Source of the DNA: Candidatus Thalassarchaeaceae archaeon
GTDB taxonomy: Archaea > Thermoplasmatota > Poseidoniia > Poseidoniales > Thalassarchaeaceae
Direction: 5' to 3'
DNA: 64,000 bases
Assembly: GCA_030749075.1 (NCBI GenBank)
Contig: JASMKR010000035.1
Span: 15,858-79,857, forward strand
Below, piece by piece: positions 10,103-59,366 of the stretch (positions are counted from its first letter, which is position 1; each line of letters begins with the position of its first letter). The notes under the pieces are model-generated. The model did no database searches, was not told the DNA's origin, and worked only from the letters and a program-made list of their open reading frames with translations. The position numbers and the translations under genes were made by a program.

Positions 10103-12157
10103 ATGATTGAGAACATACCGGAAATCGCAGCTGCAACTGCAGTCCTAGGACTTGCAATCGCTGTGCTGCTCTACACTCAGATAGAGAAATTGAAGATTGA
10201 CAATCCCACTGTAGCTGACATCACCCAGCAGATCAGGGACGGGGCGATGGCATTCTTGTTCGCTGAATACCGATACCTAGCCGTCTTCATCGTTGTCGTA
10301 GCAGGGTTGCTCTTCTTGAACCCCGATACGGGCAATCAGACCGTGCTCGCCTTCCTGGCTGGCGCTGCCGCTTCCGTGGCAGCTGGCTTCAGCGGGATGC
10401 GAGCAGCCACAAGCGCCAACGGCCGCACGGCCATGGCTGCAGCATCGGGCGGGCAGCCAGCCGCCCTAGAGGTCTCCTACAACGGAGGCGCGGTGATGGG
10501 TCTCTCGGTCGGTGGCCTCGGGCTGCTTGGCATCTCGTTGATGGCCATGTGGCTTGGAACCGGCCCCGAGGTTCAGAACATCGCTGGATTCGGCATGGGG
10601 GCCTCCTCTATCGCGCTGTTCGCCCGCGTGGGCGGTGGCATCTACACCAAGGCCGCTGACGTCGGCGCCGACCTCGTCGGCAAGGTCGAGGCGGGGATCC
10701 CTGAGGACGACCCGCGCAACCCCGGCGTCATCGCCGACAACGTGGGTGACAACGTTGGGGACGTCGCTGGGATGGGCGCCGACATCTTCGAGTCCTTCGT
10801 AGGCTCAATCATCGCTGCCATGGTTATCGCCGAGGCCTCGGGGATGCACTCCGATTACATCACCCTCCCGATCTTCCTCGGGCTAGTGGGATACGCCGCT
10901 TCGATCGTCGGCGTATTCAGCATGAAGGTGTTCAAGGGGGGCGATGCCGCTGCGGCACTGCGAAACACGACTTTCATCGGCGCAGCCCTCTTTTGGGCCG
11001 CCGGCTGGTTCGGCATAGGCTACCTGGAGCTTGAGACAGGCACAGACCCAATGCAGGCAGTGATTGCCGGCTCGATCGTCGGGATCCTCATCGGTCTCGT
11101 GACCGAGTTCTACACCGGGATAGAGCCCGTCTTCGGGATTCCCGTGAAGGCCATTCCCCACATCGGAAAGATGTCCAAGACTGGCCCTGCCACCAACGCC
11201 ATCGCAGGCCTCTCGGTTGGCATGATGTCCACTTTCATACCGATTCTCCTCATCGCGGGCGGCATCTTCGTTGCCAACGAAGTGATGGATGACGGAAGTG
11301 CTATGGCCGCTGATCTGGGACTCTATGGAATCGCCATGGCCGCGATGGGGATGCTCGCGACCGTGGGAGTCACCATGACCGTAGACGCCTATGGGCCAGT
11401 CGCCGACAACGCGGGCGGCATCTCCGAGATGAGCGAGCTAGGCCCTGATGTCAGAGAGATTACAGACAGCCTCGACAGCATCGGCAACACCACTGCTGCC
11501 ATCGGCAAGGGCTTCGCGATAGGCAGCGCAGCGCTCACCGCGCTCGCGCTCTTCGCCGCCTTCGGCACCGCGGCCCAACTCGAGGCCTCGGACCTAACCC
11601 TCACAGACCCGATGGTCGTCGTTGGGCTACTAATCGGTGGCTCGCTGCCATTCGTGGTCGCTGCCATGACCATGACCTCGGTCGGGAAGGCAGCCGGTGA
11701 CATGGTGATCGAGATCCGTCGGCAGTTTCGGGAGATTGAGGGCCTGCTAGAAGGCAGGGAAGGGGTCAAGCCCGATTCCATGACCTGCATAGACATCTCC
11801 ACACAGGCTGCCCTGCGCGAGATGGTGATGCCCGGATTGACTGCGGTCTCGGCTCCCGTGGTCGTCGGATACGCCCTCGGTCCTGCCGCCCTCGGCGGCC
11901 TGTTGGCGGGCGCGCTGGTGACGGGTGTGCTGATGGCCCTCTTCATGGCCAACGCTGGCGGTGCGTGGGACAACGCGAAGAAGGCCATCGAGCAAGGGCA
12001 CATCGAAGGCGCTGCGAAGGGGGACCCCTCTCACGACGCCGCTGTCATTGGCGACACCATAGGGGACCCGTTCAAGGACACTAGCGGGCCATCGCTGAAC
12101 ATCCTGATCAAGCTGATGTCGATCGTCTCGGTCGTCATCGCACCCGGACTTATCTGA
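10103..12157 (+). CDS. hppA: membrane-bound proton/sodium-translocating pyrophosphatase, K+-dependent type
   Basis: 684 aa and polytopic. Signature [20 protein letters not shown], with [15 protein letters not shown] carrying Ala (not Lys) at the K+-dependence position. Confidence 0.94.
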
Positions 12158-12206: not shown

Positions 12207-13157
12207 ATGCGCTCAGCCCGGGCACTGGCCCTCGCGATGCTCGTGCTCGTAGCGAGCATGGCCGGCTGCGCGGGCTCGGATGGCGAGGTCGATTCGGATT
12301 CCATCAACGTCCCGACCTGGCAGATTGGGGACTGGTGGCTCTACACGTTCTCGACCCCCGACTACAGCGACGACACGGCTAGGCTCGTCGTGGCGAGCGA
12401 TGGCGAGGAGAGCGGCACTGCCTACATGTTGGCTATCTCGAGCTTGGCTGAGGCCAGGCGGCACGCTGTGCTCAACCACAACCCATTCCTCGGAAGGGTC
12501 ACGCACTCTGGCCTGAGTGCCTTCGAGAACGGGGTGGCCCAGCCAGTGCTGTCGTTCCCGATCGAGAAGGGGGGGTCATGGGGCTTCACACTGTTCTCTA
12601 CTGAGTGGACTGCATCGGTGACAGGGGTCACGGGCGGAACGGCCATTATTGCGGGTGCCGCGTCTGACGGCTCGAGGTTGGACTACGTGTACGACAGCGG
12701 GATCGGCTACTTCTCCTCCTTCATATGGGCGGATGCCTCGGGAACGGAGCAACTCAGGATGATGGTGGCCGATCAGGGTTCTGGGCATATCGGGGACGTC
12801 TACTTCGTCAGGGGGGGTGACCTGTTCAGCGAAATCTGGGAGGACCCTGGCACAGACTTGGAGTTCCGTGACACATTCCTCGTCAGCGACCACCCCAGCG
12901 ACGGCGAGTGGGACGAGATGGTCTATTTCATCGACGCAGAGTGCGGCAGCGGCTCTTCCAGCATCACACTGACTCTGCGGGATCACCTATCTGCATCCGC
13001 TCTGGAGCGGATTTGGGGGCCCGGGGCAAGCGAGACGGGGACTTTGGGCACGATTCCATACCCCTCGGGGGAGTACACCCTGACAGCGACCTTCACCGGC
13101 ACCGCGTTCCTGCGGGTCATAATCGCGGGCGGCATCACCGAGTCGTGGAGCCTCTAG
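12207..13157 (+). CDS. hypothetical secreted lipoprotein
   Basis: Signal peptide with a lipobox-like LVASMAGCAGS, followed by a 290-aa soluble domain with no family recognised. Confidence 0.5.
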   Translation: MRSARALALAMLVLVASMAGCAGSDGEVDSDSINVPTWQIGDWWLYTFSTPDYSDDTARLVVASDGEESGTAYMLAISSLAEARRHAVLNHNPFLGRVTHSGLSAFENGVAQPVLSFPIEKGGSWGFTLFSTEWTASVTGVTGGTAIIAGAASDGSRLDYVYDSGIGYFSSFIWADASGTEQLRMMVADQGSGHIGDVYFVRGGDLFSEIWEDPGTDLEFRDTFLVSDHPSDGEWDEMVYFIDAECGSGSSSITLTLRDHLSASALERIWGPGASETGTLGTIPYPSGEYTLTATFTGTAFLRVIIAGGITESWSL

Positions 13158-13495
13158 AGGTAATCGATAAGGTTGTCCGAGCCTCCCACGAACACCGGCT
13201 CTTCGCCCCTCAAGTCGAACACTACCGGAACCGTTCGGTGTCCCGTCTGACTGACCACCGCTTGCCTGAGCCCATCGTGATGATCGAGGTTGACATCGGT
13301 GAAGCTCAGTTCTTTGGATTCGAGGACCCTGAAGGCGAATGAGCAGAAGGGGCAGATGGTCTGGGTGAAGACCAAGAAGTCGGTCTCAGTCCCTATAATT
13401 ATCTCACGAAACTGCGACAGGCTCACCGCCCCCTTCTTGGTCAGACCACCATCCAGACTCGCCCAAATCGTCCGGAAGGACAGCGTCCACGGCAT
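13154..13495 (-). CDS. glutaredoxin-like protein
   Basis: FTQTICPFCSFAFRVL (CPxC) and TVPVVF...VGGSDNL match the glutaredoxin fold motifs. The ATG at 13495 overlaps the upstream gene by 92 nt. An in-frame GTG at 13426 is an alternative start. Confidence 0.72.
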   Translation of the reverse strand: MPWTLSFRTIWASLDGGLTKKGAVSLSQFREIIIGTETDFLVFTQTICPFCSFAFRVLESKELSFTDVNLDHHDGLRQAVVSQTGHRTVPVVFDLRGEEPVFVGGSDNLIDYL

Positions 13496-16400
13496 CCTTC
13501 TCCTCGAGCACTCTATTGCACTCTTCCGGGTCGATGAAGATTAGGAAGAAGACTGTGAACATTGTGAGTGCTGCCCCCACGTATATCGTGGTGCTGTAAT
13601 TGTTGTCAAAAATCTGCAGCATCCTGCCAGTGAAGGTGTATGCCATCACTCCTGAGAGGTTGAACATTGACATGTATGCGGTGAATTGTGTCCCTCCGAC
13701 CTTGCTCCATGTCATCTTCATGCAGACAGCAATCACACATATCCAAGCAACTCCGTTTACTAGGCCTCGAATAATCAGATAGGCCGTCATAACCACTGTG
13801 TTGGTCCAGAATGGTTCCAGTACCGCCAGCATAGCATTGCACACCGCAAGGCTTGTGAAGCCGATCATTGCCACCCTTCTGACCCCGAACTTATCTCCCA
13901 GCATACCCCCTGCAATCTGGCCGGTCATGACTGCAAGGATGACGATACCGCCAACGATGACGTTGTAATCCTCCTGTTCCCATCCTGCCCGATTGATGAA
14001 TATATCAATCACGATTGGGTCTATGAAAAGGTACAGTTCGGACAGAAGGCACAGGAAAATAAGCATGAAAGAGGATCTTAGGTGGAATGCCTTGGTAAGA
14101 TTGAAACTTGTCTGAGCAAGAGTCCTGCGGGGTCCTTGGGGCAACATCGAGAATGGGTTAAAGACTCGAGGTATTGAGACCGTCCTAGCGATTAAGGCAG
14201 TGATAATGGCTAGAACGATCCCGTAGAATGCGATCGACTTTGCTGTCCCGTATAGTGGAACGGTCAGGTCAACTGAAATTATCGCAAATAACAGCCCAGC
14301 AACAAAGATGGTTAGGGATACAATAGTCAGCAGGGCTGCGAGTGAGATTCTTTCGTCGAATGTTGACCTACCCACCGCCCGAGCCGCCCACCATCTGGAT
14401 TCTTCTGGCTCCTCCCAGTATAGCCTCTCATCCACTTCAAATTCAGATACCCCGTAAGAATCCGTGGATTCAGGATATAGTGATTCTTGATTGGATGGTC
14501 TTGACCATGGGAATAGGCGGGTGCCGGGTTTCTCGTACAGGAACATTGGAAGAATCATGATCAGAAGCAGGATGGGGAGTTGTATGGAGAGCATCCCCTT
14601 GATGCCGATCGTCTTGGCGAATCCGCCAAGGACCGCGCCACCGACAATCATCCCGCCTCGCTTGGACGCGAACATGTACCCGTTTGCCTTCGAGACCTCG
14701 TCATCCCGAAGAACGTCCACTGCGAGGGCGTCGGTGCTGACGTCCTGCAGGGAAGCGAAGATGTTGTGCACGAACATTAGCTTGATCACTAGGTCGATCT
14801 GCCCCGTCAAGTCCGGGACAAAAAGGAGAGTCCCAATTGTGACGGCCATTCCAAACTGGGCGAATAATATCCACAGCCTACGGGAACCGAATTGGGGTAG
14901 GCTCAACGTGTCGATGACGGGCCCCCATATCCACTTGAAGGTCCAAGGCAAGGCGACGGTTGCGAATAACAAACCAATCTCTTGGGGGGTAAACCCGTTG
15001 TCCGAGAGATATGATGCGAAGGCGACAGTCGCGAACCCCCATGGGAGGCCTTGGGCGAAGTAAAGGACACACAACGAGACCATCCTTCTGAGTCTGTTCT
15101 CAGTCAGGCTCTGTCCGTCGAACCACTCCTCAACAAGTTGTTCTCTGTTGTAGAGCACGTATGCTAACAGGGGCAGTAAGATTAGCGACAGCCCGATAAT
15201 CAGAATTCTCGAGCTGCTCGAACCGGTTGCTTCTGCCGGTGCTACCATATCCAGAAGGATGACCCTGCGGGCATCCACTGGGGATATGTGGTCGTCATCG
15301 ACAATCAGACGGGCGTAGATGGTCGTGTTTCCAGACTCGTTGTGCGGGTCCAGCTTGATCCCCCACTGGGCCCAGTCGCCCAACGGGGAGGAGTCTTCCG
15401 CCGCCCTCCACTGGCTACCACCGACGCGGACCTGAACCTCGCCCTGACCGGGGGCCGCGCCCGAGGCGGTGCCCGATAGGTAGCTCTGGTTGAGCACCTC
15501 GTCCATCGAGTTAATGTCCATCGAGACGTTCAGGGAGCGGTCAATGCTTCCTGCGGCCTCAACGAAGGCGACGGGGTCGGCCTGGCCGTAACCGAACTCG
15601 TTGTCTGGTCTCGTCTCCAGCAGGCTGCAGTCATTGAGTCCCGCGTCTCCGAAGAGGGAGACCTCACGCTCGATCGACTTGTCGGACACGATGGCCTTCA
15701 ACTCGGAAGGAGTGAGGTCTGGGTTGGCTTGAATCATCAGGGCGGCAATGCCGGCCATCAGGGGGGTTGCCATGCTGGTGCCGGACTTGCTGGTATAGCC
15801 GTCCTGGGTGGCAGCGTCGGGGGCCATAATGCTGGAGCCGATGGTGGCGACGTCCGGTTTGACGCGGAGGTCCGAGGTGTACCCGCGGCTGCTGTAGATG
15901 GCGAGGCTGAGGTCCTTGTCGAGGCTCGCCACCGTAATCGGCAGGCGCGCATCGCCGGGGCTGTCTATGGTATTGCAGCCGACTAAGGTAGCGCCTCCGA
16001 ACTCGTTGCCAGCAGAGAGGGTAGTGATGATGCCGGCCTCGACCACCATGTCCATCTGTCGGCTCCAGGCGGAGTTTCCGTCATTGTCGACGTGGATCTC
16101 GAACTGCTGCTCACCCAGAGACGAGGTAACGATGTCAATGCCGTACTTGTCCCTGTTGTCTATGGCCCACTGGGCGCCCTCTATGACGTCCTCTATGTCG
16201 CCGTCGCAGCAGGCAAGGATGTTGATCAGATAGGCTCCGGGAGCGGCTCCGACGTAGCGCAGGCCGGTATCGGGGTCGGTCTGGCCGCCGCCGGTGCCTG
16301 CGGCGATGCCCGCGACGTGGGATCCGTGGGTGCTGGAGTCGTAGGAGGTAGACGGGTCCTGCTCCTCGTCGGTGAAGACAGCATCGTAGAACGCGATGAT

Positions 16401-17099
16401 CTTCGGGTCGCAATCCCTCGGTATCGGCCCCGGGTCAGGGTCGAGGGGGTCTGGGGGGTCGTCTAGGCAGGTGAAGGGGTCGTCATCCATGTCGTTGAGG
16501 CCCTCGTGGTCACCTCTGATCCCCGTATCTAGGACTGCGATAACGGAGCCCGTCCCATCCAGACCGAGGTCCGTCCAGACGTTATCGACGCCCATCGTGG
16601 GCACCGCTTCGTGCATGTCGGGCTCGGCCAGTCCCAGGTCCTCGACCATCACCACGCCGGGCAGAGTGCGCACGCCATCGGGATCGAGGAGTATCTCGAA
16701 GGGCACTGTCGCTGCCACGGTGTCGAGGTACTTCGCCCTGAAAGTGACCTCGGCCCCTAGATTCTCAATTGCACTTACGTCTGCATCGGAGGGATGGTGG
16801 TCGTAGTCCACGAAGACCCTCGCGCTGCCAGCAGGCGCACGTCGCCACCAGTCCTGCTGAACCTCCGCGGGCTGCTCGATCAGCCACTCGAGACGGTCAT
16901 CGAGGGAGTTTGAGTCCTTATCCCTGCTCCAGTGCAGCCACCATAATGCATGGATCTCAGACTCCACGCTAGCTACCCACTCGCCATCGGCGTCGTAGCC
17001 ACCCCTCTCGTTCGACTCGGGTACGATGGAGGAGGCGGAGAGCGGTGCGACTAGCGTGAGCACCAAGAAGGAAGCGAGGAGGGCCCGGCGTCCGCTCAT
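13404..17099 (-). CDS. fusion protein: secreted subtilisin-like S8 peptidase ectodomain plus AmpG/PAT-type MFS permease
   Basis: Continuous frame. Signal peptide MSGRRALLASFLVLTLVAPLSASS. S8 triad: VIAVLDTGI (Asp codon 16527-16529), THGSHVAG (His 16326-16328), SGTSMATPLMAG (Ser 15774-15776). A linker helix at ~15150-15206 is followed by an MFS body with LYFAQGLPWGF and LPWTFKWIWGPVIDTLSLPQFGSRRLW (AmpG-like). Start set at the ATG at 17099 rather than 17156. Confidence 0.85.
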   Translation of the reverse strand: MSGRRALLASFLVLTLVAPLSASSIVPESNERGGYDADGEWVASVESEIHALWWLHWSRDKDSNSLDDRLEWLIEQPAEVQQDWWRRAPAGSARVFVDYDHHPSDADVSAIENLGAEVTFRAKYLDTVAATVPFEILLDPDGVRTLPGVVMVEDLGLAEPDMHEAVPTMGVDNVWTDLGLDGTGSVIAVLDTGIRGDHEGLNDMDDDPFTCLDDPPDPLDPDPGPIPRDCDPKIIAFYDAVFTDEEQDPSTSYDSSTHGSHVAGIAAGTGGGQTDPDTGLRYVGAAPGAYLINILACCDGDIEDVIEGAQWAIDNRDKYGIDIVTSSLGEQQFEIHVDNDGNSAWSRQMDMVVEAGIITTLSAGNEFGGATLVGCNTIDSPGDARLPITVASLDKDLSLAIYSSRGYTSDLRVKPDVATIGSSIMAPDAATQDGYTSKSGTSMATPLMAGIAALMIQANPDLTPSELKAIVSDKSIEREVSLFGDAGLNDCSLLETRPDNEFGYGQADPVAFVEAAGSIDRSLNVSMDINSMDEVLNQSYLSGTASGAAPGQGEVQVRVGGSQWRAAEDSSPLGDWAQWGIKLDPHNESGNTTIYARLIVDDDHISPVDARRVILLDMVAPAEATGSSSSRILIIGLSLILLPLLAYVLYNREQLVEEWFDGQSLTENRLRRMVSLCVLYFAQGLPWGFATVAFASYLSDNGFTPQEIGLLFATVALPWTFKWIWGPVIDTLSLPQFGSRRLWILFAQFGMAVTIGTLLFVPDLTGQIDLVIKLMFVHNIFASLQDVSTDALAVDVLRDDEVSKANGYMFASKRGGMIVGGAVLGGFAKTIGIKGMLSIQLPILLLIMILPMFLYEKPGTRLFPWSRPSNQESLYPESTDSYGVSEFEVDERLYWEEPEESRWWAARAVGRSTFDERISLAALLTIVSLTIFVAGLLFAIISVDLTVPLYGTAKSIAFYGIVLAIITALIARTVSIPRVFNPFSMLPQGPRRTLAQTSFNLTKAFHLRSSFMLIFLCLLSELYLFIDPIVIDIFINRAGWEQEDYNVIVGGIVILAVMTGQIAGGMLGDKFGVRRVAMIGFTSLAVCNAMLAVLEPFWTNTVVMTAYLIIRGLVNGVAWICVIAVCMKMTWSKVGGTQFTAYMSMFNLSGVMAYTFTGRMLQIFDNNYSTTIYVGAALTMFTVFFLIFIDPEECNRVLEEKDAVDAVLPDDLGESGWWSDQEGGGEPVAVS

Positions 17100-17145
17100 G
17101 GGCCTACGGGCCCATGGTCCTGTTTGAGGATTCGGACTTTGCAAC

Positions 17146-18018
17146 TCAACCGGCAATCCGCACGCCCTCGTCGTCGTAGTTCCACTCTATGAGTTCCCAG
17201 CCGACCCCCTCTATCGAGGCAATGGTGTCGTCTCTGCCTGAAGGAGAGCAGAGAAGGGCTGCGCATCCCCCGCCACCGGCTCCCAGCGCTTTCCAGGCAG
17301 CTAGGGAGCCACTCTCGAGCAATGGCTCTACCACTCCTCTGAAGGGGTCGTGCAAGGTGGTGTCGATCATGTCGACTCCCTCGCAGACATCCTTGAAGGA
17401 CTGCACCACGAGATCTCTTCGGTCTTGCTGCAGGCCATTGGCCATCGGGCGTGCCGCGGCGCGTATCCTGTGAAGCCCATCGATGACTGATTCGTTGCCC
17501 TCCGCGTAACTCCCCCAAACGGAGTCCTGGATGTCCCCGGAGCGTCGACTGGTTCCAGAGTACGCGACGAGCAGGTGCTTGCGTAGCCAAATCCTAGCGG
17601 ATCGCATCGGCTCGAAGGGGATTATCTCGACAGAATCCCCAAAGAAGAGCAGGTGGTTGAACCCCCCCCTAGCCGAGGCCCAGTGGTCCTGCCTGCCGCA
17701 GAAGTTTCCTCCATCGGCCTCCATCTGGAAGGCGATTTCGGCCAACTCCTCCGGGTGCTTGTCCTCACCGCATGACATTATGGCGGCCATAGCGACGTTC
17801 AACGCGCCACTAGTCCCTAGGCCGGATCCCCGAGGAGTCTCGAAGGTGCTCCCAAAGTCTCTCGCACCGCTGCCGGGAGTTCCTGTGACACGAACGTAAC
17901 GGTTGATTGCGAAGTTGACCACCTCTCCACCGAAGTCATTGGAGTATGGATCCACATCGGACCAGCCCCCAGCGAGATCGACTCTGACAGGCGCAGAGGC
18001 TTCTATTTGGGGTTCCAT
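17146..18018 (-). CDS. GHMP-family sugar kinase (COG2605 / HddA-like)
   Basis: APVRVDLAGGWSDVDPY at the N-terminus and the GHMP motif PRGSGLGTSGA. The internal ATG at 18018 (MEPQIEAS...) is preferred because 18168 would overlap ribB. Confidence 0.72.
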   Translation of the reverse strand: MEPQIEASAPVRVDLAGGWSDVDPYSNDFGGEVVNFAINRYVRVTGTPGSGARDFGSTFETPRGSGLGTSGALNVAMAAIMSCGEDKHPEELAEIAFQMEADGGNFCGRQDHWASARGGFNHLLFFGDSVEIIPFEPMRSARIWLRKHLLVAYSGTSRRSGDIQDSVWGSYAEGNESVIDGLHRIRAAARPMANGLQQDRRDLVVQSFKDVCEGVDMIDTTLHDPFRGVVEPLLESGSLAAWKALGAGGGGCAALLCSPSGRDDTIASIEGVGWELIEWNYDDEGVRIAG

Positions 18019-18095
18019 GAGGTCTTGCGGGGCTACTACGCATAGATATGTGCTACGACCGAAAATATCGGGTATCGATGGCCCCTCCGCAAAGC

Positions 18096-18809
18096 ATGGC
18101 GTCAATCCTTGAGCGGGCGGTAGCGGCCTTCGCCGCGGGCAAACCGGTGATGATTTTCGACTCGGCATTCAGGGAACAGGAGACGGATCTGTTGTGGCCT
18201 GCAACTGCAGCAACCCCTGAAGTAATGAGAAGGCTACGTGGGGATTGCGGGGGACTGCTCTTCCTCGCCATCGGCAATGAGGTGGGAGAGTTGTTTGGGC
18301 TTCCATGGCTGCAGGATATCCACACACACAAGGCACTGGTGGCTGAACACCCGGTGCTCGGCCAGTTGATTACTGATGACCTGCAGTATGACACGAGGTC
18401 GGCCTTCACCCTCTCCCTCAACCACCGCGAGACCTACACGGGAATCACCGACAAGGACCGCTCCCTGACCACTAGACGTTTCGGCGAGTTGACTCGGGAC
18501 CTGATTAAGGGGGGCTTAGGCAGTGACGCTGCTGTCACCGCCCTAGGCTCAGAGTTCAGGACACCGGGGCACATCCCGGTGTGCAGGGAATCACCGGGAG
18601 GCTTGAAAACGCGCCAGGGGCATACAGAACTAGCTGTGGCAATCGCCAGGCTAGCAGGACGAACTCCGTGCACGATCGGAGCTGAAATGCTGGAGCCAGA
18701 CGGCGATGGTGCACTTTCGGTCGACGAGGCCCGGCGCTACGCTGTACGGCACGGAGTGCCAATGATCACAGGGGATGACATCACCAAGGCGATGGATGCG
18801 AAGGATTGA
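18096..18809 (+). CDS. ribB: 3,4-dihydroxy-2-butanone-4-phosphate synthase
   Basis: ILERAVAAFAAGKPVMIFDSAFREQETDLLWPA and HTELAVAIARLAG fit DHBP synthase. It is followed by other rib genes. Confidence 0.85.
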   Translation: MASILERAVAAFAAGKPVMIFDSAFREQETDLLWPATAATPEVMRRLRGDCGGLLFLAIGNEVGELFGLPWLQDIHTHKALVAEHPVLGQLITDDLQYDTRSAFTLSLNHRETYTGITDKDRSLTTRRFGELTRDLIKGGLGSDAAVTALGSEFRTPGHIPVCRESPGGLKTRQGHTELAVAIARLAGRTPCTIGAEMLEPDGDGALSVDEARRYAVRHGVPMITGDDITKAMDAKD

Positions 18810-52620: not shown

Positions 52621-52767
52621 GTGAGGACATAGGATGATGGGGGTATATCTGTTGTTTGCAATGCCTCTCTGGCATCACTTGGGGCATGCGTGGGAACCGC
52701 CTCTCCAAATCACAAAGCAATTGCCCCCCCAGCAGGAAATTTCTTCATCTGAATGGCAATTTTAATG

Positions 52768-52788
52768 TCCTCCTACATAGTAGGAGGA
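52768..52788 (+). promoter_or_regulatory. perfect 9-bp stem / 3-nt loop hairpin covering the GGAGG upstream of the giant ORF
   Basis: tcctcctac-ata-gtaggagga ends 2 nt before the ATG at 52791. The right arm contains the SD-like aggagg. Confidence 0.45.
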
Positions 52789-52790
52789 GC

Positions 52791-55700
52791 ATGCCTAGTG
52801 GTAACGGGGCGCGGGTCCACCTGTCTCTCCTTCTCACTTCACTGATGGTTTTCCCCACATTGTTGTCTGTCGCCGCACTAACCCTAGAGCCGCAGACAGG
52901 TGATCTAGATTCGAAATCTTCAGGAGTCTCAAAGAACGGACCTAGGGCCTACTATAGCGAATTGGGCATCCCTCAAATTAACGATCCTTCACATGGATGG
53001 TGGAATTCAGACGGCGTTGGTGAGGCCTTGCTCTACCACCGGAAGGCAACCTACGTCCCCATTGAGGATTGGCAAACCACTACGGGAGAGCGCGTTCTTT
53101 CGGGATGGCATGTCCTAGGGCACGAGTACCCCATACCTAGCAATTGGAAGGATGACCTTAGCGAGATGGGGATTGAGTGTCAGACCTTTTACTCGCCCCA
53201 AGGATTCCACTGTGATGTTCCCGACCTTTCGGGCGGAGATCTGATGGAAGCCGGAGTCATAGGGGCCTTTCGACTAGATCCAACCGACAAGCTCGCTCCC
53301 GATGTGCTACCCCTGATCTGGGGAATGGTGGAATCTAACGCGATTATGGAGGGAGACCTGTTCGTGATCAATGTCCTGCTTTCCGGGGATTTCAATCGGG
53401 GCGATATCCTGTCAAGTCCTATCGACTTGAGAGAAATGTACGCAGGTAGGTTGGCCAAGATAGTTGCAGACGAGAAGGGGATGGAGTGGCTTGTGAACCA
53501 AGATTTCGTCGAGTGGATCGAACCGGATTATCCCGTACAGTTGTCCAACGACGAAGCTGCAGAAATCATCAATGTTGATTGGGTCGGTGACCCGTCGAAT
53601 ATGGGTGGTCCGCTGAACACCCTTTCGGGTTCGGGAGTTATCGTCGCGGTGGCGGACTCCGGCTTGGATACGGCAGAGTCGTGCGGCAGTACGATTAGTT
53701 ACGCCGCCAGTTTGTTAGATTGCAACTCGAAAAACGGCGACGTTCTCGATGACTTTGTAGGAAGGATTGCCTCGGTTCAGTCCTTCCATGGTTCTTGCTC
53801 GGATGACGGGCCCAGTGACGATCATGGGCATGGCACACACGTCACTGGATCGGTTCTGGGGGATGGTTCCAACTCTCTTCCAGATGGCGAGAACTTCGCT
53901 GGAATGGCCCCAGATGCCAACTTATACATGCAAGCGATCAAGTGCGGTGGCTCCCTGTACCCCCCATCCGACTACGAAAACGACCTGTTCCTTCCTGCTT
54001 ATGAGTTTGGGGCCAGAGTCCATACCAACTCATGGGGCACAGGTCCCTCCGGAAGCACCCCCAACTACTACAGCTCATCCACACTGATGGTCGACGAGGC
54101 GGCCTATGAGATGGACGACATGGTCATCCTCTACGCTATGGGGAACGATGGATCAGATGATAACTCGAACGGCGAGATTGACCTGGAATTCATGAACAGG
54201 CAAGCGACTGCGAAGAACATACTCTCCATAGGTGCCTCGGAGAACTTCAGACCGACTCTGACTGGAAGCACATGGGGCACCGCGAACAGTGACAACTGGG
54301 GGGCTTCGCCAATCAGCAGCGATTACCTTGCAAACAACATTGAGGGTCTGGCTGCATTCTCCAACCGAGGACCGACCGACGATGGCAGGATAAAGCCCGA
54401 CCTTGTAGCCCCTGGGACATATATCATCTCCACTAGGTCCGCTGAATCCGGCGCCAGCTGTATTGAAACTGGTTACGAAAACTACTGCTACAATCAGGGA
54501 ACATCCATGGCGACTCCGATTACCGCAGGCTCGACCGCACTGATACTGGAGTACCTCAACAATCAGGGCTACACTGACGATTTCACCAAGTCCAATGACC
54601 CAGCATCTGCCATGGTGAAGGCTATGATGGCGTCAGGGGCCCACGATATGGAAGGGCAGTACAGCACCGGCGGTGATGGTAAGAACGGGGCTGCAGACTC
54701 CGCGCCAAATCCTCATGAGGGCTGGGGCTTACTTGATCTCCAAGGGACTGTCGGGACATCCTTCATGGATGGAATCAGTATCGCTACTCAGGAGAGTCAC
54801 TCGATGAGGCTGACCGTTCCGGTCGGTATCCCTGAGTTCCGCGTTGTTCTCTCTTGGAATGACCCTCCTAACTCACCCTCAGCGGGCAAGCAACTTATCA
54901 ACGACCTAGACATTTTCCTGAAGAACCCCAGCGGTGCCACCTTCAATTACGTTAACGACGATGTAAACAACTTGGTTGGAGTGACTGTAGAAAGCCCAGA
55001 TGCTGGTGACTGGGAGGTTATTATCAACGGCGCCAACGTTGCCGATGGCCCGCAAATCTACTACGTCGCCGTGAGCAATGGACTCGTTATCACCGACATG
55101 AGGCATCCGGTTTCCGATACCCTCAACATCGCTGGTTTCCAATCTGGTTCCATTTTCACCGAGACCACGGTATCTGTTGGCGGGAACCACATATGCGCTA
55201 TTATCGACGATTCGTCCCTACAGTGCTGGGGTGACAACTCGTTTGGGCAAGTAGGGGATGGGACCACCACAGACAGGTTGACTATGACCTCTGTAGCACT
55301 GGACTCCGGCAGAACTGCAGTGTCCGTAAGCACGGGGGAGTCCTACACCTGCGCCACACTCGACGACTCGAGCCTGAGGTGCTGGGGGAGGAACAATAAG
55401 GGGCAGTTGGGAGATGGTACCACCACCAACTCCATTTCCCCTGTTTCCGTCGGTCTCGGTGGCTTCCCAGTCCAGGTTTCCTCAGGTCTAAGGCATACCT
55501 GCGCTGTTCTGACTGATGCCAGTTTGAAATGTTGGGGGGACAATGCGAACGGCCAGCTAGGTATCGGGTCAAACTCGGATAGCAGCACTCCAGTTACAGT
55601 CAGTTTCAGCGGTGGCAAGAAAGTGCTTGCTGTCTCCACTGGGGCTGCTCATACCTGTGCGGTGCTGGATGACAGGAGCCTGCAATGCTGGGGCGAGAAC

Positions 55701-58700
55701 GGGGATGGCCAACTTGGAATTGGGACTAATTCCGATAGCGATTCTCCGTCTGAAGTAACTGTAGGGGGCTATGTTGTTGCTGTCTCGGCAGGGGGGTCAC
55801 ATACCTGTGCTCTGATGGTAAACCAGGATCTCAAGTGCTGGGGCAGCAATAGCCAGGGCCAACTCGGGAGCGGGGACCAAGTTTCCCAGAACTCGCCAAC
55901 AACAGCAGTTCTTTCAGAAGTAATTTCTATTGATGTTGGGGGCGAACACTCGTGTGCGGTCAACCTCACCCAAACGTTGTACTGCTGGGGTGCGAATTCG
56001 GGCGGTCAGGTCGGGGATGGAACAACCAGTACCGCTACCTCGCCAACTATGATTAGCGTGGGTTCCTCATTGGGTGCAATATCAGTTTCCGCGGGTGGCT
56101 CTTTCTCTTGTGTCACGGCTAGCAACGACCTTCTAAGCTGCTGGGGCGGAGCGAGTTCGGATTCGATTTCAATAGGATCTTCGCCTAGCGAGATCGAGTT
56201 ATCACGCTGGACATACATCAATTCCGCGGAGAGAGATTTGGACGATGATGGGTCGCTGAACCTTTTCGACACTCATGGACCGGGGGACAATGATGGTGAT
56301 GGCTTCCCATCAGGGTCAAATGATGTGGATGACAGCAACCCCGCAAGAGCCGCTGACTGTAGTCCCGGCTCCTATGGCAGGTACATCTGCAAGGTGGCAA
56401 CTGTCGGATTCTTCGTCAGCGACCCGGGTAGCCTTGTGATGACGCCGGCCAGTTCTGGGCACTACGTCGATACTGACGGGGCTTCAATCGACACGCCCTG
56501 CGCGGTTGGAACATACCAAGAACGAACTGGTCAGACCTCATGCGACCCGTCGCGAGCTGGATACTACGTCGATCTGGAGGGGCAATCATCCGATACCCCC
56601 TGTCCGGGAGGTAAGTTCAACCCAAATACTGGTTCCATGTCTGAAGAAGACTGCACGGGGTCGGAACCGGGCTACAACGTGCCCATCCTAACCCAAATAA
56701 GTTCTGGCTCTTTCCATACATGCGCTATCCTCGACGACGGTTCGGTGAGTTGCTGGGGAGACAACGCGAATGGGCAACTGGGTGACGGCACTAGATCTGG
56801 GCACACCTCTCCGGAAACTGTCCTGCTACCTTTGGGCAAGTCCGCAGTAGCTATTTCCTCTGGATCATACCACACTTGCGCCGTCTTGGATGACGGTTCT
56901 CTACGGTGTTGGGGTAACAATGAATTCGGCCAACTCGGTGATGAAACTACAATCGAGAGGATTAGCCCAGTAAGTGTTGACCTCGGCTCGGGGAGGACTG
57001 CTGCGAGCGTGTCAGCTGGCGAGTCACATACCTGTGCTGTGCTCGATGATTCAAGCGTGAAGTGCTGGGGGGAGAATAGCAACGGGCAGCTGGGAGATGG
57101 AACTAGTACGAACCGCTTCAGCCCTGTTTCGATAGGGCTGGGTGACGGCAATACGGCCGTATCGGTGTCTTCGGGCTCTTACCATACCTGCGCCATTACG
57201 GACGAAAGGATGGTGAAGTGCTGGGGCGACAACTGGCATGGGCAATTGGGAGACGGCAGTACTGGAGACCGGTTTTCCCCTACGAAAATCGATTTGCCGA
57301 TTAATAGCAGCGCTGTGACCCTGTCATCTGGCTCTTTCCACACCTGCGTGGGCCTCAATGATGGATCCATGTTCTGTTGGGGATACAATGCATATGGGCA
57401 ACTTGGTAACGGGAACATGTCGAATAGCCACTCACCCTCTGCAGTGGGATTGATCGAGTCAGAATCCCCCACTCAAGTCTCTATTGGAATGTATCACAGC
57501 TGTGCACTTTTCGACAGCGGCAGCGTATCCTGCTGGGGCGGGAACTCAGAGGGACAGCTCGGGGATGGAGGTCAGATTGAAAGTTTGATTCCCCAAACCG
57601 TCGCCCTTCCCGCAGGAAAGGACGCGCTTTCAATCTCGATAGGGCAACGGCACTCCTGCGCTATTCTGAACGATGCGACTCTCTATTGTTGGGGCTACAA
57701 TGCCAACGGGCAACTCGGGGATGGAGGGACGACGAATCGCCTTTTGCCATCCAACATTGACTTGCGACATGGGTCAAGCGCCCAGATAGCATGCTCCCCG
57801 GGGACATTCCAGCCTAATGCGTCACAGACTTCTTGCATTCTCGCTGACAGGGGGTATAGCGTCCCCCTACAGGCTTCGCTCAATCAGACTGGCTGTACCA
57901 AGGGATACTATTCGAGTCTGAGGGGTCAGGAGTCATGCATTATGGCCTCGATTGGTTATTACGTGGACGAGAACCTAGCTGACTCACAAACTGCCTGTCC
58001 TCCGTTCAACTCCACTGTACAACGAGGTTCGAACAACTTCGATCTATGCAAGCCCGACTTCGACGGTGACATGTCTCCAGATGTGATTGATCTGGATGAC
58101 GATGCCGACGGCGTGGAGGATCGCTACGACTTCGATCCACTCGACCCTGAGGTCTCTATTGACTCCGACGGGGACTCGATTCCCGATAGCCTGGATAGCG
58201 ATGACGACAACGACGGCGTGAACGACACCACTGACAAATTTCCATACAACCAAGACGAATGGGAGGACAAGGACGAGGATGGAGTGGGGGACAACAGCGA
58301 CAACGATGACGATAACGACGGACGAGAAGACTCATTCGACGTGTTCCCCAACGATCCCGCGGAATGGTCGGATTTCGACGGGGACGGCATTGGCGACAAT
58401 GCCGATGAGGACGACGACAACGACGGCGTCAACGATGTTGACAACGACCCCTATGCCGATTTGGATGACGCGTTCCCGCTCGACAGTACGGAATGGATAG
58501 ATACCGATGACGACAGCATCGGCAACAACGCCGACACCGATGATGACGGGGACGGTTTCGATGATGAATTGGATGCGTTCCCTCTCGACCCAACGGAGTG
58601 GCTCGACAGTGATGGTGACACTTTCGGTGACAATTTCGACTGGGACGACAACAATCCATTCGAGTGGATGGATTCGGATGGAGATCAGATTGGTGATAAC

Positions 58701-59123
58701 TCGGACGAATGCCCTGATGAACAAGGATTGAACTCTAGCTTCGAGAACTTCGCTCACAAGTTGGCGTTGCCCGGAAACAAACTCGGATGCCCTCTTTTCG
58801 AAGGAGAGGTCGTGGTTGAGGAAGAAGAGATTGGTTTCACACTCTCAGACGTCGATGTCACGGATACCGACGGTGACGGTACAGTGGACCTCTTCGATCC
58901 CGACGATGATAATGACGGGATTCCTGATGAGGAGGATGGTAAGTTGGATCGGCGGACTGGCGAAGGGAAGTTCTCGAAGGACCCAACTAGGCCATTCGGA
59001 CAGAATACTTGGATTGTTATCTTGTTGAGCTTCGTATTCATCTCCATGATGGGACTCCGGTTATTCAGTTGGAAGAAAAGGAAGTTTGCTACGCTGAAGT
59101 CAAAGAGAATCAGGCTAGGATAA
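52791..59123 (+). CDS. giant membrane-anchored surface protein: S8 peptidase + 2 RCC1 propellers + Cys-rich ephrin-receptor-like repeats + thrombospondin type 3 Ca-binding repeats
   Basis: Signal-like N-terminus (HLSLLLTSLMVFPTLLSVAAL). S8 triad: VAVADSGLDT (Asp 53655-53657), HGHGTHVTG (His 53829-53831), GTSMATPITAG (Ser 54504-54506). A P/Fn-like domain (VVLSWNDPP...LINDLDIFL) and a C-terminal helix 59004-59065 with a basic tail. ATG at 52791 is preferred over 52656. Confidence 0.9.
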   Translation: MPSGNGARVHLSLLLTSLMVFPTLLSVAALTLEPQTGDLDSKSSGVSKNGPRAYYSELGIPQINDPSHGWWNSDGVGEALLYHRKATYVPIEDWQTTTGERVLSGWHVLGHEYPIPSNWKDDLSEMGIECQTFYSPQGFHCDVPDLSGGDLMEAGVIGAFRLDPTDKLAPDVLPLIWGMVESNAIMEGDLFVINVLLSGDFNRGDILSSPIDLREMYAGRLAKIVADEKGMEWLVNQDFVEWIEPDYPVQLSNDEAAEIINVDWVGDPSNMGGPLNTLSGSGVIVAVADSGLDTAESCGSTISYAASLLDCNSKNGDVLDDFVGRIASVQSFHGSCSDDGPSDDHGHGTHVTGSVLGDGSNSLPDGENFAGMAPDANLYMQAIKCGGSLYPPSDYENDLFLPAYEFGARVHTNSWGTGPSGSTPNYYSSSTLMVDEAAYEMDDMVILYAMGNDGSDDNSNGEIDLEFMNRQATAKNILSIGASENFRPTLTGSTWGTANSDNWGASPISSDYLANNIEGLAAFSNRGPTDDGRIKPDLVAPGTYIISTRSAESGASCIETGYENYCYNQGTSMATPITAGSTALILEYLNNQGYTDDFTKSNDPASAMVKAMMASGAHDMEGQYSTGGDGKNGAADSAPNPHEGWGLLDLQGTVGTSFMDGISIATQESHSMRLTVPVGIPEFRVVLSWNDPPNSPSAGKQLINDLDIFLKNPSGATFNYVNDDVNNLVGVTVESPDAGDWEVIINGANVADGPQIYYVAVSNGLVITDMRHPVSDTLNIAGFQSGSIFTETTVSVGGNHICAIIDDSSLQCWGDNSFGQVGDGTTTDRLTMTSVALDSGRTAVSVSTGESYTCATLDDSSLRCWGRNNKGQLGDGTTTNSISPVSVGLGGFPVQVSSGLRHTCAVLTDASLKCWGDNANGQLGIGSNSDSSTPVTVSFSGGKKVLAVSTGAAHTCAVLDDRSLQCWGENGDGQLGIGTNSDSDSPSEVTVGGYVVAVSAGGSHTCALMVNQDLKCWGSNSQGQLGSGDQVSQNSPTTAVLSEVISIDVGGEHSCAVNLTQTLYCWGANSGGQVGDGTTSTATSPTMISVGSSLGAISVSAGGSFSCVTASNDLLSCWGGASSDSISIGSSPSEIELSRWTYINSAERDLDDDGSLNLFDTHGPGDNDGDGFPSGSNDVDDSNPARAADCSPGSYGRYICKVATVGFFVSDPGSLVMTPASSGHYVDTDGASIDTPCAVGTYQERTGQTSCDPSRAGYYVDLEGQSSDTPCPGGKFNPNTGSMSEEDCTGSEPGYNVPILTQISSGSFHTCAILDDGSVSCWGDNANGQLGDGTRSGHTSPETVLLPLGKSAVAISSGSYHTCAVLDDGSLRCWGNNEFGQLGDETTIERISPVSVDLGSGRTAASVSAGESHTCAVLDDSSVKCWGENSNGQLGDGTSTNRFSPVSIGLGDGNTAVSVSSGSYHTCAITDERMVKCWGDNWHGQLGDGSTGDRFSPTKIDLPINSSAVTLSSGSFHTCVGLNDGSMFCWGYNAYGQLGNGNMSNSHSPSAVGLIESESPTQVSIGMYHSCALFDSGSVSCWGGNSEGQLGDGGQIESLIPQTVALPAGKDALSISIGQRHSCAILNDATLYCWGYNANGQLGDGGTTNRLLPSNIDLRHGSSAQIACSPGTFQPNASQTSCILADRGYSVPLQASLNQTGCTKGYYSSLRGQESCIMASIGYYVDENLADSQTACPPFNSTVQRGSNNFDLCKPDFDGDMSPDVIDLDDDADGVEDRYDFDPLDPEVSIDSDGDSIPDSLDSDDDNDGVNDTTDKFPYNQDEWEDKDEDGVGDNSDNDDDNDGREDSFDVFPNDPAEWSDFDGDGIGDNADEDDDNDGVNDVDNDPYADLDDAFPLDSTEWIDTDDDSIGNNADTDDDGDGFDDELDAFPLDPTEWLDSDGDTFGDNFDWDDNNPFEWMDSDGDQIGDNSDECPDEQGLNSSFENFAHKLALPGNKLGCPLFEGEVVVEEEEIGFTLSDVDVTDTDGDGTVDLFDPDDDNDGIPDEEDGKLDRRTGEGKFSKDPTRPFGQNTWIVILLSFVFISMMGLRLFSWKKRKFATLKSKRIRLG
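55173..56160 (+). repeat. RCC1-like repeat block 1 (6 clear blades plus 1 degenerate)
   Basis: Periodic ~50-aa units ending in CWG-x4-GQ(L/V)G-xG, e.g. LQCWGDNSFGQVGDG, LRCWGRNNKGQLGDG, LKCWGDNANGQLGIG. Confidence 0.85.
56697..57765 (+). repeat. RCC1-like repeat block 2 (7 blades)
   Basis: VSCWGDNANGQLGDG, LRCWGNNEFGQLGDE, VKCWGENSNGQLGDG, VKCWGDNWHGQLGDG, MFCWGYNAYGQLGNG, VSCWGGNSEGQLGDG, LYCWGYNANGQLGDG. Confidence 0.87.
58056..58725 (+). repeat. thrombospondin type 3-like acidic Ca-binding repeat array
   Basis: About 6 units of FPxDPxEWxDxDGDGIGDNxDxDDDNDGVxD. The DNA is visibly self-similar (gacgacgacaacgacggcgt-type strings). One more unit lies at ~58855-58935. Confidence 0.8.
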
Positions 59124-59137
59124 ACAGTGCGCCACAG

Positions 59138-59222
59138 TGGTGCAGGGGGCAGGATTCGAACCTGCGAAGCACTACGCACAGCGACCTGAACGCTGCCCCT
59201 TTGACCACTCGGGTACCCCTGC
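59138..59222 (-). tRNA. tRNA-Leu (anticodon CAG), class II, CCA encoded
   Basis: The reverse complement folds by hand. Acceptor GCAGGGG/CCCCTGC, anticodon arm CAGCG-TTCAGGT-CGCTG, 13-nt variable arm, T arm GCAGG-TTCGAAT-CCTGC, then ACCA. Confidence 0.9.
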
Positions 59223-59281
59223 TCAAATTGGCGCTGCTACTGTGGGACTTCAATGCAACGCAATGGGAAAGGAATGGTGAA

Positions 59282-59366
59282 TGGTGCAGGGGACAGGATT
59301 CGAACCTGCGAAGCACTACGCACTGGGACCTAAACCCAGCCCCTTTGACCACTCGGGTACCCCTGC
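59282..59366 (-). tRNA. tRNA-Leu (anticodon UAG), class II, CCA encoded
   Basis: Same body as the neighbouring tRNA. Anticodon arm CTGGG-TTTAGGT-CCCAG, T arm GCAGG-TTCGAAT-CCTGT (G-U closing pair), then ACCA. Confidence 0.9.

Follow-up and report, generated by a model that had tools for sequence, protein, structure and literature searches.

The stretch of DNA analysed here, referred to as the window, comprises 64,000 nucleotides of contig JASMKR010000035.1 from a Candidatus Thalassarchaeaceae archaeon. On its minus strand it carries a gene in which a secreted subtilisin-like protease of family S8 (the head) and a permease of the major facilitator superfamily (MFS) are encoded as one polypeptide, joined by an additional membrane helix that we call TM0. 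The open reading frame (ORF), 13404..17156, is single and uninterrupted and comprises 1250 codons if read from a TTG. Starting from the ATG at 17099 a product of 1231 residues is obtained, and because this length matches that of most close homologues (1226-1235 residues) the ATG is the likely start. The parts of the gene are outlined below in the order of the polypeptide, after the entry for the whole coding sequence.

13404..17099, minus strand: S8-TM0-MFS fusion, whole coding sequence (1231 residues plus stop; the same single ORF in 63 related loci)
17031..17099, minus strand: signal peptide, Sec-type, residues 1-23 (MSGRRALLASFLVLTLVAPLSAS followed by S; hydropathy peak at residues 8-26, n-h-c layout conserved in homologues)
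16605..17030, minus strand: N-terminal pro-region, residues 24-~165 (AlphaFold secondary structure; Foldseek match to ProN-Tk-SP, 3afg)
15585..16556, minus strand: Peptidase_S8 catalytic domain, residues 182-505 (Pfam E 1.1e-44; PDB 3afg E 3.3e-38)
16527-16529, minus strand: Asp191 (LDTG), catalytic triad
16326-16328, minus strand: His258 (THGSH), catalytic triad
16005-16007, minus strand: Asn365 (SAGNE), oxyanion residue
15774-15776, minus strand: Ser442 (GTSMATP), catalytic triad
15225..15584, minus strand: beta-sandwich (Ig-like/E-set) stalk, residues 506-625 (AlphaFold strands with a confidence score, pLDDT, of ~60-90; Ser/Gly-rich tether at its end)
15150..15218, minus strand: TM0, extra out-to-in helix, residues 628-650 (hydropathy 2.58; AlphaFold helix)
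15090..15149, minus strand: cytoplasmic linker, residues 651-670 (about 20-100 residues long among homologues, the frame never lost)
14532..15089, minus strand: MFS N-bundle, TM1-6, residues 671-856 (AmpG-type extended motif A; TM4 pair D786/D790)
14082..14531, minus strand: central region, residues 857-1006 (acidic disordered loop, inserted helices 918-941 and 951-974, amphipathic helix)
13530..14081, minus strand: MFS C-bundle, TM7-12, residues 1007-1190 (second motif A, GDKFGVRR)
13407..13529, minus strand: acidic cytoplasmic tail, residues 1191-1231 (conserved ...DLGE..WW..EGG motif)

The fusion is genuine and is encoded by one conserved gene of this Thalassarchaeaceae (Marine Group IIb) archaeon. 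A homologue search returned 1355 protein matches, and all of the 120 listed, for which domain content and lengths are known, carry both the Peptidase_S8 and the MFS Pfam domains at 60-94% identity; 118 of these measure 1223-1330 residues and the two shorter ones (903 and 1166 residues) both lie on short contigs. The listed homologues stem from marine metagenomes, some of them named Candidatus Thalassarchaeaceae or Euryarchaeota, and on some the automatic label of the Joint Genome Institute (JGI) reads 'subtilisin family serine protease/MFS family permease'. Furthermore, scanning a genome set with a single representative for each GTDB species yielded 79 distinct loci, which were surveyed by BLAST. 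Almost all of them bear the label Poseidoniales, Thalassarchaeaceae or Marine Group II, and single-cell genomes as well as one 1.6-Mb long-read contig are among them. S8 and MFS are joined in one ORF at 63 of the 79 loci and the junction is split at none; one locus (L046) shows a frameshift within the S8 domain, four are cut by contig ends and 11 carry another head on the same permease. The nearest relative among the scanned loci is found in the metagenome-assembled genome (MAG) SP208 (L001; 94% identity). Since a cluster named Marine Group III euryarchaeote or Poseidoniia archaeon (P0123) also holds an S8-MFS protein, at 49% identity, the fusion spans the class; it is old and maintained.

These counts bear directly on the trivial explanation that two neighbouring genes were fused by an assembly or frameshift error, to which we assign a practically negligible chance. 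A single frame is kept at 63 independent loci, which stem from many different projects and include both single-cell genomes and long-read assemblies, the length of the linker differs by tens of codons with the frame intact throughout, and the sole frameshifted relative is broken within the S8 domain, away from the junction. This relative (L046:5782-9884, MAG UBA8684) is interrupted within the catalytic domain, behind the His region and ahead of the Ser region, and represents either an assembly error or a pseudogene. A further locus (L048) lies on the contig NZWI01000049.1, which is assigned to Candidatus Neomarinimicrobiota. Here, too, DHBP synthase and GHMP kinase precede the archaeal fusion gene, within which the contig ends; the placement is probably a binning error of that MAG.

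The head is exported outside the membrane and consists of a subtilase pre-pro-enzyme with intact triad and oxyanion Asn, followed by the stalk. The N-terminus, MSGRRALLASFLVLTLVAPLSASS, exhibits a hydrophobic core at residues 8-26 in the hydropathy profile. In homologues RS, CR or RK stands in place of its RR, so that Sec is more likely than Tat; Tat export was rejected because the twin-arginine is not invariant. The core of the pro-region (~64-154) is modelled by AlphaFold as beta-alpha-beta-beta-alpha-beta with a pLDDT of 70-90, which is the subtilase propeptide pattern, and on this model residues 24-~165 presumably form such a propeptide; the Pfam scan of the protein gave no match to Inhibitor_I9 in the pro-region. 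For the catalytic domain, PF00082 (Peptidase_S8) scores 153 bits versus a cut-off of 21.8 and covers profile positions 1-288 of 288, the best solved relative being Tk-SP from Thermococcus kodakarensis (3afg, E 3.3e-38). Asp191, His258, Ser442 and the oxyanion Asn365, together with the motifs around them, are invariant in an alignment of 41 fusion proteins with identities as low as 64%, and the triad and oxyanion columns are also invariant across a 119-sequence alignment. The stalk gave local Foldseek matches to Ig-like domains of SorT, GbpA, fn3 and PKD (E ~1e-4). AlphaFold models were obtained for the full chain and for the head alone from shallow alignments (at least 64-72% identity). These were too shallow for a good model of the S8 domain, whose identification rests on sequence, and the Foldseek matches of the head model are valid for the stalk and the propeptide only.

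An earlier sequence-only reading of the window had described one uninterrupted minus-strand frame of about 1231 codons with a cleavable-looking signal peptide, a complete S8 triad and a beta-rich spacer behind the protease. All of this is borne out: the frame from the ATG at 17099 has exactly this length, the hydrophobic core is seen, the three triad codons lie at the very positions given and keep their residues on alignment, and about residues 506-625 are modelled as a beta-sandwich. The survey of fused versus split relatives, which that reading had proposed, excludes two separate genes or an artefact.

The extra helix TM0 and the permease body

TM0 corresponds to the hydropathy peak ILIIGLSLILLPLLAYVLY at residues 632-650 (Kyte-Doolittle 2.58), and the AlphaFold helix spans 628-650. 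It is followed by an MFS body of 6 + 2 + 6 = 14 helices, on which hydropathy and AlphaFold agree (permease pLDDT 70-90). In the Pfam scan MFS_1 matches residues 676-971 (E 8.5e-28, 97.7 bits versus a cut-off of 33.4). Acatn (PF13000) matches residues 676-757 (E 6e-9, 35.3 bits versus 23.7) with only positions 5-87 of its 546-position profile, and the match to SLC33A1 structures (E 5e-7) is confined to the N-bundle. In NCBIfam the first rank is held by the AmpG family muropeptide MFS transporter (E 3.7e-35, residues 671-1181, 121 bits). A phmmer search aligned LPWTFKWIWGPVIDTLSLPQFGSRRLW of the permease to AYVFKFLWSPLMDRYTPPFFGRRRGW of E. coli AmpG (9c3f, E 2.3e-11), the best match among solved structures. 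The top four Foldseek matches of the permease model are likewise AmpG structures (9j9z, 8zbb, 8zgz and 9c3f); other 14-helix MFS proteins rank lower and PepTst2 appears only at rank 38, a generic MFS fold likeness. The motif DLGE..WW..EGG of the acidic tail is common to proteins with S8 heads and to those with the ~240-residue heads described below.

The extended motif A in the N-bundle comprises K722, W725, P727, D730, G738, R740, R741 and W743. Residue roles were taken from the cryo-EM study of E. coli AmpG, in which Tyr59, Lys62, Asp125, Asp129, Lys132 and Tyr152 are the disaccharide-binding and proton-relay residues (PMC11568325), and AmpG residues were mapped via the phmmer alignment to 9c3f and then checked in the 41-sequence alignment. 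Kept are Lys62 (K722), Trp65 (W725), Pro67 (P727), Asp70 of motif A (D730), Arg80 and Arg81 (R740 and R741), Trp83 (W743), Asp125 (D786) and Asp129 (D790); D730 and R740/R741 correspond to the motif-A latch of AmpG, and K722, D786 and D790 to its Lys/Asp/Asp cluster, the charge relay. Changed are Tyr59 (W719), Tyr152 (K813) and Lys132 (A793), and every one of these positions, kept or changed, is invariant in the 41 proteins. The pattern points to an AmpG-like carrier that is probably proton-coupled and serves a different substrate, and not to an AmpG orthologue. As archaea have no murein, a role in murein recycling is not expected in this archaeal host. We are highly confident of the architecture as such and of both halves being functional.

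For this half, too, the sequence-only reading fared well. It had expected one extra hydrophobic helix ahead of an MFS body of ~14 helices and separate profile matches for the two halves, and each was obtained (Peptidase_S8 E 1.1e-44; MFS_1 E 8.5e-28). Its topology, with the head outside, an odd helix and an MFS starting inside the cell, holds on hydropathy and on the AlphaFold model, and the resemblance to the AmpG loop, which it had noted for the first loop of the MFS body, is real in the phmmer alignment. The assignment to the AmpG/PAT type stands as an affinity by sequence and fold and fails as orthology, the score of 121 bits lying far below the AmpG cut-off of 350.

Exchangeable heads at a fixed locus

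TM0 and the MFS body form a chassis at a fixed Poseidoniales locus, on which the heads are swapped between lineages: S8, M28 or a domain of ~240 residues. Head swapping, the fixed syntenic locus and the spread across Marine Group II and III had been missed by the sequence-only reading. The 11 loci with another head, all from Thalassarchaeaceae, match the permease half only and encode proteins of 875-892 residues that consist of a signal peptide, the ~240-residue domain, TM0 and a permease of 53-55% identity to that of the window. The ~240-residue head is extracellular and Cys-containing (PYMYFWG..DL..CWNNFD ... FRMYYS in L069:5098-7752 (+), also in L067-L079, P0124, P0126 and P0131), and in P0131 it sits on a different permease clade. 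No Pfam or NCBIfam match was obtained for it, it is unrelated to the S8 head, and its interpretation as a remnant of the S8 stalk was rejected (hhalign probability 2.7%).

Further heads were found by an all-against-library HMMER search and Pfam. A Peptidase_M28 head is carried on TM0-MFS by P0127 (869 residues), whose family comprises about 57 clusters at 55-100% identity, and in other marine Poseidoniales such an M28 fusion (L080:7001-9610 (+)) lies at the same locus, beside a 320-residue protein and the membrane H+-pyrophosphatase (H+-PPase). A second M28 family (P0333/P0335, 885-908 residues) exhibits a more divergent MFS-like body with the motif WAQPVDR...GRRRSW; its C-terminal half is not recognised by Pfam though the AmpG-like motif A is present. 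Heads without a family match in Pfam are also found on P0124, P0126, P0130 and P0131, and related bodies can carry C-terminal additions, namely a 3-keto-disaccharide-hydrolase domain and FG-GAP repeats.

The TM0 motif GPIxFFIPF... is common to proteins with S8, M28, cupredoxin and ~240-residue heads, so that the swap point lies just outside TM0 and TM0 is part of the permease. The stand-alone S8 relatives P0135 and P0143, which are held by a plain C-terminal helix, had suggested that TM0 is the former C-terminal anchor of a stand-alone protease, an idea weakened by the occurrence of the motif under unrelated heads. TM0 as a relic PGF-CTERM or sorting signal was rejected because five TM0 segments gave no NCBIfam match at E <= 10. 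In a crude neighbour-joining tree of the permease bodies those with ~240-residue heads are nested within the Thalassarchaeaceae clade of S8-headed proteins, a separate clade is formed by the M28, cupredoxin and other bodies and the Marine Group III S8 body is placed far off, which indicates that heads have been shuffled among chassis.

The gene order around the fusion is conserved: DHBP synthase, GHMP-type sugar kinase, fusion gene, a convergent secreted protein of 316-324 residues and H+-PPase. In the window the adjoining genes are the following.

10103..12157, plus strand: membrane H+-pyrophosphatase, locus marker (Pfam H_PPase E 4e-242; conserved synteny)
12207..13157, plus strand: 316-residue secreted lipoprotein-like protein, always convergent to the head-TM0-MFS gene
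17146..18168, minus strand: GHMP-family sugar-kinase-like gene, directly upstream of the fusion gene on the same strand with a 46-bp gap

The 316-residue neighbour contains a lipobox-like Cys (MAGCAG), gave no relative in Pfam, NCBIfam or PDB and may be a partner of the fusion device. Genomes with 95%-identical H+-PPases may differ in the head, their permeases being 68% and the neighbouring 316-residue proteins 55% identical. The permease and the 316-residue protein are thus a fast-evolving, surface-exposed pair. Directly after the stop of the fusion gene and on the same strand lies a small glutaredoxin-like ORF with a CPFC motif (~13154-13376, minus strand), starting either at the TTG at ~13376 or at an ATG at 13495 that overlaps the fusion end; the M28 fusion of L080 likewise has a glutaredoxin gene behind it, there on the opposite strand. 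Elsewhere in the window, 52656-59123 (plus strand) encodes a second, giant subtilase of 2155 residues with Peptidase_S8 at residues 325-691. Behind this domain lie 12-13 RCC1/RLD beta-propeller repeats and a module resembling ephrin receptors, and the protein is probably another surface protease of unusual build. Two tandem tRNA-Leu genes with CAG and TAG anticodons, 60 bp apart, lie at 59138-59366 (minus strand).

Coupling of digestion to uptake and its rivals

Our best reading, to which we give an even chance and which the sequence-only reading had put forward as well, is that the products of the head are coupled to import by its own permease. The propeptide would be removed after export and the active protease would be held a few nanometres above the outward mouth of the permease by the beta-sandwich stalk and the Ser/Gly-rich tether. 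Dissolved or particulate protein would be cut at the cell surface and the permease, driven by the proton gradient, would import short peptides (possibly glycopeptides) before these diffuse away. The outcome would be a private 'digest-and-capture' device of a periplasm-less cell, with fixed 1:1 stoichiometry and co-localisation of both activities. Somewhat more tentatively, we propose a Poseidoniia class of single-chain 'ecto-enzyme-permeases', in which a fixed 15-helix chassis, an AmpG-like proton symporter, would bear exchangeable extracellular heads (subtilase, M28 aminopeptidase and others) whose products are handed to the permease beneath.

The strongest support, albeit indirect, for a link to peptides is that two unrelated peptidase classes, S8 and M28, sit on the chassis at the same locus. 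The genomes of Marine Group II have been characterised as those of proteolytic organisms reliant on amino acids from outside (PMC6461757), extracellular peptidases of classes S8 and M28 have been reported for the group (PMC6864105) and its peptidase and hppA genes are highly transcribed (PMC9723583). The 'subtilase' of the latter study (gene 558, SIMO Bin 19-2) was considered as expression evidence for the fusion and rejected, as it is a different S8 gene of 2.4 kb.

Several results count against the coupling. The permease misses the cut-offs of the AmpG families TIGR00901, NF008238 and NF008867 (121 versus 350, 60.5 versus 756 and 71 versus 656 bits, respectively), and the Pfam scan of the fusion protein gave no match to the PTR2 profile (POT/PTR2) at E <= 0.1. 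The characterised relatives carry muropeptides, acetyl-CoA or siderophores and not plain peptides. In the AlphaFold models the catalytic domain stays below a pLDDT of 50 and no reliable head-to-permease geometry is obtained. Furthermore, the ~240-residue head occupies the orthologous locus in place of S8 with the same gene order as in the window, and a plastocyanin-like cupredoxin head sits on the same TM0 and the same kind of MFS body (P0128, 660 residues, on contigs up to 1.2 Mb), which fits poorly with digestion and import. Neither head bears a hydrolase signature, and with such non-protease heads on the chassis the fusion alone is no proof of product channelling. Since the bodies group by lineage and not by head type in the crude tree, the cavity shows no obvious adaptation to the head.

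The chassis could accordingly be a platform only. TM0-MFS would in that case carry an unrelated small molecule and double as an anchor or display scaffold, with peptides entering by other systems, which we consider unlikely though a serious contender; that the fusion yields co-expression and anchoring with no product hand-over at all appears doubtful to the same degree. The unrelated chemistry of the heads fits this explanation, the domains of P0124, P0126, P0130 and P0131 joining the cupredoxin of P0128, and so do the C-terminal additions, the tree, in which permease bodies are not grouped by head type, and the plain C-terminal helix of P0135 and P0143, which makes anchoring alone a common solution. 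However, one helix is enough for an anchor, yet the 1:1 fusion is kept across Marine Group II and III; the permease itself is strongly constrained, and two independent peptidase classes have come to sit on the chassis, M28 even on two different bodies.

A different fate of the polypeptide would be shedding, in which the fusion is a precursor, the subtilase is cut from TM0 after membrane insertion, by itself or by another enzyme, to act as a free or S-layer-bound exoprotease, and the permease works alone. Subtilases routinely autoprocess propeptides and C-terminal extensions, as in Tk-SP and the halolysins, and the Ser/Gly-rich tether ahead of TM0 is a possible cleavage site. No conserved cleavage motif was seen, however, tether and TM0 are conserved under every head type, even under non-protease heads incapable of self-cleavage, and a released enzyme loses its products in dilute sea water; we regard shedding as improbable. 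The reverse direction of transport, with the MFS exporting a precursor peptide or a segment of a surface protein that the external S8 domain trims, would resemble the lantibiotic pair LanT/LanP and the peptidase-containing ABC exporters. Protease-transporter fusions for export are indeed known from the C39-ABC transporters, and the LanP enzymes belong to the S8 family. The neighbours of the fusion are nevertheless housekeeping genes (riboflavin synthesis, sugar kinase, H+-PPase) with no precursor-peptide or biosynthetic genes nearby, the gene is core, syntenic and confined to a single locus instead of forming part of an accessory cluster, and AmpG, the nearest relative by structure, imports its substrate with protons as the driving force and shares the motif-A latch. 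Export followed by processing is given only a slight chance.

Significance and comparison with known systems

Both domains belong to well-known superfamilies, S8 and MFS, and automatic annotations label both. New are the joining of a large extracytoplasmic enzyme to an AmpG-like carrier via an extra helix, and the modular head exchange together with the core syntenic status in Marine Group II and III. In the open-access texts searched, including genome and transcriptome papers on Marine Group II, a peptidase-MFS fusion is not mentioned, in agreement with the sequence-only reading, which knew of no characterised one.

Marine Group II are among the most abundant archaea of the surface ocean; they have so far escaped cultivation, and proteins and lipids are regarded as their likely diet. 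A covalent ectoprotease-permease encoded by a core gene offers a concrete, testable answer to the question of how a single-membrane cell retains the products of extracellular hydrolysis. If the coupling holds, very abundant planktonic archaea that have no periplasm would possess a mechanism to harvest seawater protein and keep the hydrolysate, genera could diverge in niche by swapping heads and the AmpG-like MFS clade would obtain its first substrate class. The finding also touches on the extent to which products of marine exoenzymes are truly 'public', and swappable heads at one locus can serve as a genomic marker that tells the substrate niches of Poseidoniales genera apart. For transporter biology, an MFS carrier that incorporates a large extracytoplasmic enzyme domain by way of an additional helix would be a rarity.

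Ectopeptidases beside carriers are known from the brush border, where ACE2 or aminopeptidase N forms complexes with B0AT1 (SLC6A19) and raises the local substrate concentration; unlike the fusion, these complexes are eukaryotic and non-covalent, and the carrier belongs to an unrelated family that takes amino acids rather than peptides. Protease and transporter do share one polypeptide in the peptidase-containing ABC exporters (C39 domain; PCAT1); in these, however, a cytoplasmic protease is joined to an ABC exporter and removes a leader peptide during secretion. The head by itself resembles Tk-SP (3afg) and the membrane-anchored archaeal subtilases in its propeptide, S8 domain and C-terminal beta domain, whereas those proteins end after the beta domain or after a single anchor helix (P0135, P0143) and no transporter follows. 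Similar in overall build is the M28-TM0-MFS family of P0127, which shares the chassis, the TM0 motif, the locus by the H+-PPase and the presence of a peptidase head; its head is of the metallo-aminopeptidase type in place of a serine endopeptidase, the protein measures 869 residues and it is likewise uncharacterised.

The permease finds its counterpart in AmpG (PDB 9c3f, 8zgz, 9j9z; PAT family, TC 2.A.1.25), which is the best solved sequence match, supplies the top fold matches and also has 14 helices. Motif A, W-x-P-x-x-D...G-x-R-R-x-W, and the equivalents of Lys62, Asp125 and Asp129 are invariant in the fusion, and an internal two-helix insertion is found in AmpG of Pseudomonas aeruginosa and Acinetobacter baumannii as well (PMC11568325). 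In contrast to AmpG, the fusion stays below the family cut-offs, differs in the cavity (Y59 to W, Y152 to K, K132 to A), resides in an archaeal host and carries an extra N-terminal helix and a 600-residue extracellular enzyme head. A precedent for the coupling is AmpG1 of A. baumannii, whose periplasmic domain binds the lytic transglycosylase Slt and for which a coupling of cleavage and import was proposed (PMC13507758). In both cases an AmpG-type permease is physically tied to an extracytoplasmic hydrolase. The AmpG1-Slt pair is non-covalent, cleaves glycan and serves cell-wall recycling, whereas the Thalassarchaeaceae fusion joins a protease to its permease in one archaeal polypeptide that is presumably directed at external food.

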